Of a stretch of DNA of 64,000 bases, positions 5,171-54,633 are shown piece by piece (position 1 is the first letter of the stretch; each line of letters begins with the position of its first letter). Under the pieces are notes generated by a model that was given only the letters and a program-made list of their open reading frames with translations, was not told where the DNA came from and searched no databases. The DNA comes from Eledone cirrhosa (Eukaryota). A program made the translations under genes and the position numbers. The stretch is from NCBI GenBank assembly GCA_964016885.1, contig OZ024742.1, positions 59,210,001 through 59,274,000 on the forward strand. The letters are read 5' to 3'.

Positions 5171-5526
5171 GTGAGTGTATGTGTATGTATATGTACGGAT
5201 GCGTACGTGTGTGTGTGTGCATCTATATATACGGGTGCGTGTATGTGTGTGTCTGTGTATATGCGTGCGTATATAAACGCGCGTGTGTGCGTGTGTGCCT
5301 CTCTGTGCGTAAGAGAACATTAGTCTACAACCTCTTTATACCATAAACGTGGTTCCGTCTTTGCGCGTAATTGGTTTTCACCGCTCCTATTAATGACGTA
5401 TTATATTCATTTTTTCCCGTTCTTTGCCAGGGAACGTTTCCACGAACCAAAGTATCATCTTCCTGTTTTCCTCCGGTTGCAGCGTTTTTGAAATATCCAC
5501 TTCTGCGTTTACAGATTGACTTTGTT

Positions 5527-5577
5527 AGTTTCAGAAGATCCCGTTAAGGGTGAAAGCAGCGATTCTTTGCTTAAACT
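5527..5577 (+). ncRNA. Variant hammerhead (CAGAAGA core) in 5' pLTR
   Basis: aguuu-CAGAAGA-u ccc guuaa ggg u-GAAA-gca gcgauucuu ugc-UU-aaacu. Confidence 0.72.
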
Positions 5578-5731
5578 TTAATCTGTTATTTTAATAAATA
5601 TTTGCTCTACGGTTCTTATATATTTGATATATATTTATCCTTATCGAGCCCTCTTTGGATTTTAGTCTTCAAATTTATTATTATTACTATTTGGCTCCCT
5701 CGGTTGAGCACTCTATTGACTTATATTCATC

Positions 5732-7862
5732 ATGCAGAAACAACATCTGAATATTTCTACAAAGAACATACCCGTACCAAGCAGGAAAACATACCTAAAA
5801 CTCCTGATACAGAAAACAGACGCGTTCATTAAAAGGTTGCGGTGGCATGCCTTTTATTTCGATAATCCGCGAAAAGCAGACAACAAACAGGATAAATTTG
5901 GGTTTAAAACCTATAATAACCCCCCGTGAAACCCAGCATTGCTACCCTTCGAAAATGATGTCTTGGAACTCATACGGAGTATCAAATTTCGGAATAGGAA
6001 CAATTCCTTCCAGCAGGACCTGAAGAATAGAATTCGTTCTATTAAGGATTCTAATGCCGTGCACGTCCATTCCGACAAAACTGGCAACCTATATCAAGTG
6101 GAGCGCAGTACTTACCATCAACTGCTACATAATGCTGTAACTAAGGATTACCGTAAAACTAATCGGTGCGTCATCAATTTAATCAACGATGCTGGGTTTA
6201 AAATCACATCTGATCTCAACATCATGGACCGGACCGAACCTCTGGACCCTTTTTCTCCCCACTTTACCCTGAAGGATCACAAATCCAAATTTTCCGAACA
6301 ACCCCTCTATTCGGCTTATTAACCCTACGAAGTCCTATTTAGGTAGACTTAGTAAAACGATTCTTGATAGAATTATACCTGAAATTAGAAGTTTGGCCCC
6401 ACTTGCACTGTGGAACAATTCTTTCGCGGTGATCGATTGGTTCAACGTCATATGTAACAAGGAACATTGCCGTTTTATCCAATTCGACATCAACAATTAC
6501 TACTCCTCCATCACTTTACCACTTCTCCTTAGAGCTATCAATTTCGATAACACACTCACAGTAGTTAAGGATTTCGAAGTTGATGTCATCCTCAATGCCC
6601 GTAAGTCGGTGATTAATTTCGACGACTCTATTTGGATTAAAAAATCCAATAGTACCCCATTCGACGTGAGTATGGGCGCCAGCGATTCTGCGGAGGTTAC
6701 TGATCTTATCGGCCTTTTCCTTCTTTTCTCTATCAAGGACGAATTCCCCAACGCGGGCGGTGGTTTGTACCGTGATGATGGTCTTTTGACTATGACTAAG
6801 TGCGGGCCTCGTGCTTGCGACAGGTTCAGAAAAGAACTCACAGCCTTCTTTAAAGGCTTCAACCTCTCTATCCAGGTTGAGGCCAATCCCTCGGTCGTTA
6901 ATTACCTCGACGTTACCCTCAATTTATTGAATGGGTTGTATTACCCGTATAGAAAGCCGAATGATACGCTTAATTACATAAGTAAGCATTCCAACCATCC
7001 TGCCAGCATAACCAAGAACCTGGTAAGAAACGTTTCGTTGAGGCTTTCCCGTCTATCTACTAACGAGCATATTTTCAACGACCATTCCACTTATTACAAT
7101 GAAGCTCTTGCTCGGAGTGGATTTGTCGATAAGGTAGCTTATACAGTGTACGAAAATAGACCTAGAAGAAATAGATCCCGTCGCATTTGTTGGTATAACC
7201 CACCATATAATATGGAGGTAGCCACACCATTAGCTAAGATCTTTCTTTCCCTTATTACGAAGCATTTTCTCCCTACACATAAATATAGTAACATTTTTAA
7301 TAGAAATACTATTAAAATTTCTTACTTTACGACTCCCAACCTTGCACATAACATCACAGCTTCAAATTTAGCTAAACTACCTAGCCGTAGGAATACGTGC
7401 GACCCTGTAGTTAGTACTAACTGTAATTGTAGGAATCGCGTTGATTGCCCCCTATCCGGGAAATGCCTCTCTAGTAACATTGTCTACAAATGTAAGGTTG
7501 AAACACCCACGTCCCGTAGGGCCTACATAGGGTTAACCGCCAATAGATTCAAGCAGCGTCTTTACATGCATACCCATTCTTTTCGTTACCCTCTAAGAAG
7601 GAATATGACGTCACTTTCGGCTTATATCTGGAGTCTAAAAGACAACCACACCCAATATAAGCTACACTGGGAGATCCTAGCTTGGGCTAGATCGTATAAC
7701 GGAAATAAAAGACCATGTGACCTCTGCGCCGCTGAGGCCCTGGAAATACTCTACGCCACAGACCACATCTTTAACAAAAAATCTGAGGCAATTTCGGCTT
7801 GTAAATATAAATTGCACAAAACTTTCCTGTATTACAGCCCCACGTTATACCCTAACGGATAG
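5732..7862 (+). pseudogene. PLE reverse transcriptase plus GIY-YIG endonuclease (~710 aa, two lesions)
   Basis: KNIPVP...FIKRLRW, SDKTGN, FDINNYY, FDVSMGASDSAE, GLYRDDGL, CNC-x5-CPL, IVY...AYIG, CDLC. In-frame TGA at 5927-5929 and a frameshift near 6286. Confidence 0.93.
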
Positions 7863-8797
7863 TACGATCTGTACGTGGATATTTTACGTCTTGATGTGGT
7901 AGCTAAGTATATGTTTTGTTTATACCATTACTTATTTGCATAGGTAAGTATATATTACCTGTATGTTTCGTGAAGGTACATATACCTTCTCGTACGTATA
8001 TGTGATTTTATATGTTATGGCGTATAATTTTTTTATATATTCTGGTACATATGGTTTGGTTATGTGTATAGGGGAGTTTTGCGTCTGTGTGAGTATGCAG
8101 GTTCGTACGTATGTAGGGTGTGTGTATATGTGTACTTCATATTCTGGTTGACTTACGTCTCCGAATATTTGTGTATTTACATGTAGGTATGTGTGTGCGC
8201 TTGTTATATACGTATTTATTTATTTATATACGTTTATTTATTTATTTATTTGTATACACGCATACACACACACACATATTTATATGTGCGTGGTTTTGTA
8301 TACCCATGGTAAGTGTTTTTGCGTATGCTTGTGATGTACGTATTTGTATGCGTGTATGTATTTATTTAATTTCTATTACTTCTGTATTGTATTTATTTAC
8401 TTTGTTCTTAACTCTGAAGCGGAGATTCATTCGGTCTCCTAGTTAGAATTTTAGTCTACGACTTCTACTATACCATTTACGTGGTTTTGTCTTTGCGTGC
8501 AATTGTTCTCCATGCTCCACATATGACGTATTACCTTCGGTTTTTTTGTTCATTGCCAGAGAACATCTCTATGAACCACCTAAGAGAACATTAGTCTACG
8601 ACCTCTTTATACCATAAACGTGGTTTTGTCTTTGCGCGTAATTGGTTTTCACCTCTCCTATTAATGACGTATTATATTCATTTTTTCCCGTTCTTTGCCA
8701 GGGAACGTTTCCACGAACCAAAGTATCATCTTCCTGTTTTCCTCCGGTTGCAACGTTTTTGAAATATCCACTTCTGCGTTTACAGATTGACTTTGTT

Positions 8798-8848
8798 AGT
8801 TTCAGAAGATCCCGTTAAGGGTGAAAGCAGCGACTCTTTGCTTAAACT
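8798..8848 (+). ncRNA. Variant hammerhead (CAGAAGA core) in 3' pLTR
   Basis: Identical to 5527-5577 except one loop III nucleotide. Confidence 0.72.
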
Positions 8849-8864
8849 TTAATCTGTTATTTTA

Positions 8865-9542
<678 letters not shown>

Positions 9543-26429: not shown

Positions 26430-26981
26430 AAAATAAAAATAGAATCCACACACAGAAAAGATGCAATGTTTAGGCAAATTAAAGAGGCAGTAAGCATAAA
26501 AAAATTACAACCAAAATTAAATAGAAAATATGAGTGGAACAGCAACATCACAACTTACAATTAAGGACAAAATGAAAACACACACACACATAGAACAAAC
26601 AACCAACCAACAATAAATAAATAAATAAATAAACAAATAGATAAATGAACACAAACACACACAGACACCCGGATGTGGCGCATGCGCAAACTGAGCACAC
26701 AACACACACACAGAAACAAAATGGAGTAGGACAGAAGAAAGGAAAGGCACAGAAACAAAGAAAGGAATCGCCAGTCACTGAAGAGGTCACAGAGTGTGTG
26801 ACGAAAGGACTATGACTATATATAAACAACTATCTAGTTGTGGAACCAACCAACCAACCAGAAATTTATAAGTTTGTAGATTTGTAAATTTATAAATTTA
26901 TAAATATATAATAAATTGAAGTGAAAGCAACTGGTGCGTGTGTTTCTTATTGGCAACATGACCCTCCCAAAGTATAACAAT
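26430..26981 (+). mobile_element. 5'-truncated PLE (GIY-YIG end plus pLTR)
   Basis: Colinear with 42920-43448. Confidence 0.88.
26773..26817 (+). ncRNA. Minimal type I hammerhead
   Basis: aguca-CUGAAGA-g-gucaca gagug ugugac-GAAA-ggac-UA-ugacu. Confidence 0.85.
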
Positions 26982-27919: not shown

Positions 27920-27962
27920 ACCGAGAACAATTGTTTCCCCTTAGTCAGATCATCAGCTCGGT
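27920..27962 (-). ncRNA. Minimal type I hammerhead
   Basis: accgag-CUGAUGA-ucu gacuaa ggg-GAAA-caauug-UU-cucggu. 6-bp stem I, palindromic stem III. Confidence 0.82.
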
Positions 27963-30262: not shown

Positions 30263-30265
30263 CAA

Positions 30266-30531
30266 TGTCAATCTGTAAACGCAGAAGTGGATATTTCAAA
30301 AAACGTTGCAACCGGAGGAAGACAGGAAGACAGGAAGACGTATTATATTCGTTTTTACCCGTTCTTAGCCAGCAAACGGTTCCACGAACCAAAGGATCGT
30401 CTTCCTGTCTTCCTCCGGTTGCAACGTTTTTTGAAATATCCACTTCTACGTTTACAGATTGACTTTGTTAGTTTCAGAAGATCCCGTTAAGGGTGAAAGC
30501 AGCGATTCTTTGCTTAAACTTGAATCTGTTA

Positions 30532-30540
<9 letters not shown>
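30266..30540 (+). mobile_element. Solo pLTR of the 5310-8872 PLE family with a 5' inverted segment; HHR at 30470-30520
   Basis: 30266-30331 is the reverse complement of 30398-30463. The remainder matches 5430-5596. Confidence 0.88.
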
Positions 30541-30580
<40 letters not shown>

Positions 30581-40681: not shown

Positions 40682-40796
40682 ATAGGAACCAGTAAGACCC
40701 CGACAGCTGAGCTCAAGCCGTTTCGACGGCTAATTCTGGACTGTCCAGAATTAGCCGTCGAAACGGCTTGAGCTCAGCTGTCGGGTCTTACTGGTT

Positions 40797-54590: not shown

Positions 54591-54633
54591 ACGATGCTGA
54601 CGATAGCTAATAAGCTTGAAACTAGTACATCAT
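54591..54633 (+). ncRNA. Minimal type I hammerhead, inverted copy
   Basis: Same as 54061-54103 with one stem I mismatch. Confidence 0.87.

Follow-up and report, generated by a model that had tools for sequence, protein, structure and literature searches.

Structure of the locus

In the window, as we call the whole stretch of 64,000 nucleotides of Eledone cirrhosa DNA analysed here, three hammerhead-like motifs sit in the pseudo-LTRs (pLTRs) of what, by its ORF motifs, pLTRs, targets and protein similarity, is a Hydra-clade Penelope-like element (PLE). The element and its fragments comprise the following parts.

5310-5601, + strand: upstream pLTR, 292 bp, 97.9% identical to 8581-8872
5602-5690, + strand: optional "tail"; copies end near 5601 or at 5690
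5732-7862, + strand: RT and GIY-YIG ORF carrying Hydra motifs, interrupted by a stop (near 5927) and by a frameshift (near 6290)
8581-8872, + strand: downstream pLTR, a direct repeat of 5310-5601, followed by (TA)n
30263-30330, - strand: inverted truncated piece of the same pLTR (94% over 68 bp), adjoining copy 3
30337-30544, + strand: 5'-truncated pLTR copy (93.3% identity over 208 bp) that runs into (TA)n and holds hammerhead copy 3

The motifs at 5532 and 8803 lie in the two pLTRs of one insertion, and that at 30475 lies in a separate truncated copy. The same ORF is open across 709 aa in three other genomic copies (L075, L081 and L085), with YRDD and VY...YIG. Reading by eye identified RWR (L075, L081), SDKT (L081, L085), CNCRNRADC, CDLC and CKH in it, the published marks of the Hydra clade being RW(K/R), DKT, CxCX5C, CxxC and CxH (PMC8557442). 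The ORF protein is 43% identical over 668 aa to a jellyfish protein, the only one of six homologues examined that has a name. Pfam matched RT and GIY-YIG on homologue P0103 only and neither of them on the ORF protein itself. Further traits of the Hydra clade found here are the pLTRs, the inverted truncated copies and the (TA)n target. A non-LTR retrozyme, with short head-to-tail non-coding hammerhead repeats, was rejected as a reading, since the copies flank an ORF or are solo or inverted. An older 137-bp duplication of the first half of the pLTR (75% identical), at 8445-8578 just upstream of the 3' pLTR, is common to other copies as well.

A hammerhead fold with A at position 4

The hammerhead core consensus consists of C3 U4 G5 A6 N7 G8 A9, G12 A13 A14, the A15.1-U16.1 pair and H17, in which U4 makes the U-turn of the hammerhead pocket and is regarded as invariant. 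The three motifs of the window, all on the + strand, have the following parts.

5511-5586: type I hammerhead fold, copy 1 (sequence, pairs and energy, descriptor)
5511-5519 with 5578-5586: outer helix I of copy 1, with a bulge at 5520-5526 (predicted pairs)
5527-5531 with 5573-5577, 5540-5542 with 5548-5550, and 5555-5559 with 5567-5571: stems I, II and III of copy 1 (predicted pairs)
5532-5538: core C3-A9, with A at position 4 (5533) replacing U (sequence)
5539-5551: U10.1 (5539)/U11.1 (5551) mismatch at the closing position of the 3-bp stem II, a common feature in the Hydra clade (sequence; File S2 of PMC8557442)
5570-5573: CUU triplet, with the scissile bond predicted at 5572/5573 from hammerhead numbering
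8782-8857: hammerhead fold copy 2, with one change in loop III (sequence, pairs, descriptor)
30454-30529: hammerhead fold copy 3 (sequence, pairs, descriptor)

The heptamer CAGAAGA starts at 5532, 8803 and 30475, and the 5' strand of stem I at 5527, 8798 and 30470. A window scan with a descriptor that left position 4 free recovered all three motifs, each with a 5-bp stem I and, as the first-pass annotation had described, the U.U mismatch, a 3-bp stem II, a closed stem III and a CUU triplet, and the same descriptor gave 0 matches in each of 20 shuffled windows. Three helices surround the core and open at stem I (pairs predicted), as in type I hammerheads; of the strict type I core consensus, position 4 alone deviates. 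The motifs were said to lie just upstream of the pLTR end, and indeed they end 15-25 nt short of it. Their extent has to be corrected: 5527-5577 holds for the inner stem I, which continues beyond a 7-nt bulge into a 9-bp outer helix, so that the whole motif spans 5511-5586. Nor can three pLTR copies be taken as a sign of selection, because they represent two insertion events and their core is common by descent. The U.U pair at 10.1-11.1 is likewise no novelty, being present in 14 of 25 published Hydra families (PMC8557442), 10 of which have U17, and also among the variants of Perreault et al. 2011 (PMC3088659).

The folding model, which leaves out tertiary contacts, gave pair probabilities of 0.72-1.0 for the outer helix and only 0.05-0.08 for the inner stem I, and placed the hammerhead conformation at -13.0 kcal/mol against an MFE of -15.1, so that the active fold is 2.1 kcal/mol less stable than the MFE structure. 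In copy 3 a T-to-G change disrupts a G.U pair of the outer helix. The predicted cut lies 159 nt upstream of the ATG, and the two points at which copies of the family end on the 3' side (about 5601 and 5690) are downstream of it.

Rfam yielded no hammerhead match at E<=10 for an A4 copy or for a natural U4 copy, and U4A is therefore not the cause of the miss. The earlier expectation that strict searches would overlook the motif thus stands for descriptors with an exact core, such as the filter of PMC3088659, and not for Rfam. On the full window, the Rfam matches listed (150 of 343) were all driven by microsatellites. A CRISPR-repeat reading of the motif, at 14.7 bits only, was discarded. One spurious Rfam match fell on a GC-rich inverted repeat at 40705-40783, which is nearly perfect and about 79 bp long.

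A4 across the genome

Genomic copies were counted by sequence-pattern matching. With a 34-nt pattern in which position 4 was free, A4 was found in 10,159 of 10,223 exact matches, the remaining 64 being 28 T, 18 G and 18 C by hand count. A looser pattern, which also admits a few other families, gave 29,799 matches (99 of the 100 matches listed belong to the A4 family), and an anchor outside the motif gave 9,331 matches, with A4 in all 100 of those listed. The consensus of the family reads CAGA. The first-pass annotation had proposed a family-level variant and not decay, to be checked by conservation across genomic copies and overturned by a CUGA consensus; the genomic counts, the outside-anchored copies and the older subfamilies, in which the rest of the core is unchanged, support that proposal. 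A4 also occurs on contigs labelled as three organisms, which are possibly not independent.

The 28 U4 copies of the young family look like scattered later point mutations, some of which occur as neighbouring pairs; one copy (L048) carries U4 in one pLTR and A4 in the other. CUGA in L122 and L178 was considered as a U4 ancestor and rejected as an inversion-junction artefact, and the T4 rows L198, L212, L217, L240, L309 and L365 are artefacts of the same kind.

Derivation of A4 from U4

In the most diverged related family of the same genome, position 4 is U in 13, C in 5 and A in 2 of 20 rows, which came from the 100 matches listed of 112 to a pattern with positions 4-5 free and were counted by hand because the automatic subfamily labels mixed groups and junction rows. 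A downstream-anchored search for this oldest family found only 6 loci. The oldest group has a 4-bp stem II and diverges by 14% from its own majority, compared with 13%, 11% and 3% for the later groups (loose labels). A few intermediate copies are still U4 (L362, L230), and a 40%-identical Hydra element on metagenome contigs has CUGA. All 25 Hydra families in File S2 of Craig et al. 2021 (PMC8557442) have CUGA as well, together with a closed stem III and C15.2-G16.2. Since the oldest family is mostly U4 and both the published Hydra families and the 40%-identical relative are CUGA, A4 is, on this comparison of sequences, derived from U4. Once acquired, A4 persisted in at least three later groups that differ at loop II, loop III and the bulge.

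An oldest family that was all C4 and then underwent CpG decay was also considered; the counts of 11 TG against 2 CA argue against it and point to a U4 majority with a C4 side branch. The five C4 rows among the 20 (L533, L534, L551, L552 and L560) likely represent such a U4C side branch of the oldest family.

Variable and invariant sites after the U4A change

To avoid selecting copies by their core, we sampled them with anchors outside the inner motif (the tail; the flanks or the protein), the tail-anchored sets being 120 loci taken from 211 and 245 matches, with overlap between the sets. Position 4 is A in 26/29, 17/19 and 30/30 copies of three anchored samples, and the five T4 rows in these include one true U4 intermediate and two inversion junctions. 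The three A4 groups contain 53, 60 and 42 alignable copies, and a site was called lineage-variable when a second letter reached at least 20% within a group, CpG decay being set aside.

Between A4 lineages, 1 of 36 core and stem sites was variable compared with 19 of 39 unpaired sites (Fisher p 4e-6), a contrast that stems from few lineage events, with site classes set post hoc on the window sequence, loop indels that inflate the loop counts, and p-values, here and below, that assume independent sites. The counts were 2/36 versus 20/39 at a threshold of 17% and 1/36 versus 16/39 at 25%. Flank sites were also more variable than core and stem sites (7/19 versus 1/36, p 0.0016). None of the 10 invariant core sites varied (p 0.004), nor did any of the 8 of these that are unpaired (p 0.015); within the core only the free position N7 varied, with U in 7/32 and 5/29. 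Loop II (3/5 sites) and the bulge (5/7) were the most variable parts.

The 9-bp outer helix, with a bulge of 7-9 nt, is present in all subfamilies. Five of its 18 sites exceeded the threshold; two of the changes break pairing, each on 3 of 12 copies, and the well-supported ones keep it (A-U to G.U, G.U to A-U, and a C-G/U-A swap at 5510/5587). With regard to covariation, the inner stems are invariant between A4 lineages, and the outer helix shows wobble changes and this one two-sided swap. The constraint could stem from protein binding instead of catalysis.

An offshoot with a broken stem II and the 5' ends of genomic copies

One lineage, the only one found with a broken stem II, has lost two of its three stem II pairs and is present in at least 204 exact copies. 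A Hydra ORF lies near 1 of 30 loci of this lineage, compared with 9 of 30 main-family loci; most of its loci share about 1 kb of different upstream sequence, and 7 of 30 also lack the 3' strand of the outer helix. Judged by these surroundings, the lineage is a non-autonomous offshoot. Its sampled loci (L489-L518) show a unit of about 1 kb with an A4 pLTR, a broken stem II and its own 3' end, and in a sub-branch a pyrimidine tract replaces the 3' strand of the outer helix.

A cleavage footprint was sought in the 5' ends of A4-family copies. The 5' end could be placed, at the ATG or upstream of it, for 51 of 90 protein-anchored loci; a locus interrupted by an N gap at 5579 was excluded. None of these 51 ORF-bearing copies starts within 5 nt of 5573: 18 stop before the predicted cut, and 33 run through it, so that all 33 long copies that reach the site are uncut. 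Among about 38 very short copies no peak was seen at the cut either, with 3-4 starting at 5572-5573 and about 14 at 5579-5580 (hand count). As the offshoot spread without stem II and 33/33 long copies run through the site, cleavage is not needed on the template. The lack of a 5'-end footprint does not discriminate between an active and an inactive ribozyme, because uncut templates dominate for an active PLE hammerhead too, that of PAc (PMC11167929).

Many older copies (L309-L368) show a 5' truncation or an inversion within the hammerhead, often immediately before stem I, which could reflect stalling of the reverse transcriptase at a structure or only the sampling of short copies.

Comparison with published hammerheads

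The Eledone element resembles Hydra PLEs in its single ORF with RT and C-terminal GIY-YIG, its (TA)n targets and its pLTR hammerhead, and the hammerhead resembles theirs in its closed stem III, short stem II, U.U and U17 (PMC8557442). It differs from the Hydra families, which have CUGA, C15.2-G16.2 and a GUH triplet, in having A4, G15.2-C16.2 (CUU), a longer loop III and the 9-bp outer helix, and its unit is about 3.3 kb long whereas theirs are mostly <3 kb (PMC8557442). Set against these families, the U.U, the short stem II and the closed stem III are traits of the clade, and the departures are A4 and, to a lesser extent, CUU. With the minimal PLE hammerheads of Cervera and De la Pena 2014 (PMC4209133) the Eledone motif shares type I folds in both pLTRs, thousands of solo copies and a low expected activity; its stem III, however, is closed and non-palindromic (monomer type), its stem II is short, and its core change is at position 4 and uncompensated, the one core variant known among the minimal hammerheads being U3-A8.

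Natural core variants reported by Perreault et al. 2011 (PMC3088659) include U4C in a viroid, U3-A8, A6C, U13a and U10.1-U11.1. As in those cases, a conserved core position has changed in nature, and the U.U closing pair is known there and active; U4C has a lower activity in vitro that is sufficient in vivo in the viroid. However, the known core variants are rare singletons, whereas U4A is fixed here in a family of tens of thousands. The available text of that paper names no U4A, and it is the only source of natural U4C or U4G hammerheads that we found in the literature. No natural U4A hammerhead was found in the literature covered; Lunse et al. 2017, on PLE hammerhead variants and outside that coverage, may describe position-4 variants. 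In a pairwise mutational scan (PMC9901934), whose available text gives no value for U4A, the single and double mutants of the CUGA turn were all low in activity and none was rescued, except for the C3-G8 swap.

In the Poseidon element PAc of Anolis (Frangieh et al. 2024, PMC11167929), two 3' ends define a tail and both are 3' of the hammerhead, as in Eledone. The PAc core is canonical and overlaps the start of the ORF, unlike the variant core of Eledone 159 nt before the ATG; the PAc hammerhead is cut only with its protein and is not required for insertion, reverse transcription mainly uses uncut RNA, and mutation of the hammerhead leaves insertion in vitro normal. In chrysovirus 5'-UTRs, weak hammerheads with k of about 1e-2 to 1e-3/min are cleaved in vivo and the cleavage aids translation (PMC13725137). 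Naiad PLEs thrive without canonical hammerheads (PMC8557442). Against the literature covered, A4 is a core change not described before, in a ribozyme and a class of element that are both familiar; it is real at the level of the family and apparently under selection.

Possible roles of the A4 hammerhead

The data directly support the element, a fixed and derived A4, an unchanged remaining core and insertion from uncut RNA. Beyond this we lean, at slightly better than an even chance, towards a pLTR hammerhead that has a fixed U4A in tens of thousands of copies and likely still cleaves itself slowly, its residual activity likely being what selection kept in the protein-coding lineages. Read-through RNA would fold into the active form only part of the time, and a minority would be cut 159 nt upstream of the ATG in the upstream pLTR. 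The cut would detach element mRNA from transcripts that are tandem or begin in the host and may favour translation, as described for chrysovirus leaders (PMC13725137), and the uncut majority would be the template for reverse transcription starting downstream of the ribozyme. Slow cutting would be a small burden for such an element and would spare templates. In favour of slow self-cleavage are the near-invariance of core and stems after U4A, the well-supported outer-helix changes that keep pairing, and the non-autonomous nature of the one lineage with a broken stem II. The U4C viroid (PMC3088659) and the chrysovirus 5'-UTRs (PMC13725137) are precedents for hammerheads that are weak but sufficient, and PAc (PMC11167929) for one that is assisted by a protein and dispensable for insertion. 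The strongest argument for low activity is the uniformly low, unrescued mutants of the CUGA turn (PMC9901934). Against slow self-cleavage count the weak features that appear stacked in this motif (U.U, 3-bp stem II, CUU, an active fold that is not the predicted MFE and low predicted stem I pairing), the spread to at least 204 copies of the stem-II-broken lineage, some of it also without the outer helix, and the missing cleavage footprint in genomic 5' ends.

A catalytically dead fold, kept in the autonomous element for another job such as binding its own protein or controlling transcription or translation, is a rather doubtful alternative. It would agree with the low activity of position-4 mutants (PMC9901934), the lack of 5' ends at the cut site, the normal insertion of hammerhead mutants in vitro (PMC11167929) and the many older copies truncated inside the motif, as a stable structure or a bound protein could cause; yet the conserved positions coincide one by one with the catalytic consensus, N7 alone being free, and an offshoot copied at least 204 times without stem II implies that template recognition is independent of the fold. 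That U4A simply abolished the activity of a single master copy, whose motif was then carried along beside the start site of reverse transcription, is very unlikely: a high copy number shows descent only, the stem-II-broken lineage spread and Naiad PLEs do without canonical hammerheads (PMC8557442), but such a relic is already disfavoured by the changes after U4A, which affected loops and flanks (19/39) far more than core and stems (1/36).

It is improbable that A4 is compensated to a near-normal cutting speed, whether because loop II touches the bulge in stem I or because the ORF protein acts as a chaperone. The outer helix and bulge kept in all subfamilies, the closed stem III that permits folding as a monomer and the PLE hammerhead that is cut only with its protein (PMC11167929) would fit; however, loop II and the bulge vary more than any other part, which would not be expected of a fixed tertiary contact, the 33 long copies reaching the site are all uncut, and the mutational scan found no second-site rescue (PMC9901934). 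A bolder version of slow cleavage, which we regard as unlikely, would be an active, tuned CAGANGA hammerhead that exchanged U4 for A4, with C4 as a side branch, kept its other catalytic bases and out-amplified its U4 relatives more than hundredfold through a slow, possibly protein-gated cut that splits the RNA into a translation pool and an insertion pool. If this were true, the hammerhead consensus would widen and PLE hammerheads would gain a function.

In this animal genome of 3 Gb, U4A is fixed, and the remaining core conserved, in an element that ranks among the most abundant. Search filters discard cores without U4. The U4 ancestors, the C4 branch, the A4 families, the U4 revertant copies and the stem-II-broken offshoot form a natural allelic series that could help to show how hammerheads serve Penelope-like elements. 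If the A4 form cuts, the consensus and genome-wide ribozyme counts need widening; if it fails to cut, the fold must serve a second purpose other than catalysis.

Other hammerhead-like repeats

Another repeat family in the window has canonical CUGANGA motifs with a long stem II and a minimal stem III, at 26778 (+), 43260 (+), 42597 (-), 30822 (-), 4505 (+) and 51938 (-), of which those at 26778 and 4505 pass the descriptor. Further type I folds with a canonical core lie at 54597 (+), 54097 (-), 27956 (-) and 37587 (+); the first two are an inverted pair with a palindromic stem III, and that at 27956 has a 3-bp stem II and U17. Elsewhere in the genome, a separate family (L130, L132, L135, L136, L141, L146) has CUGA, U.U at 10.1-11.1, a palindromic stem III and CUU. 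A family with CUGA, U.U, a very variable loop II, a GUC triplet and an ambiguous stem I register was found at L121, L126, L127, L133, L138 and L142 and at window position 93 (-), and its copies often lie beside the A4 family.
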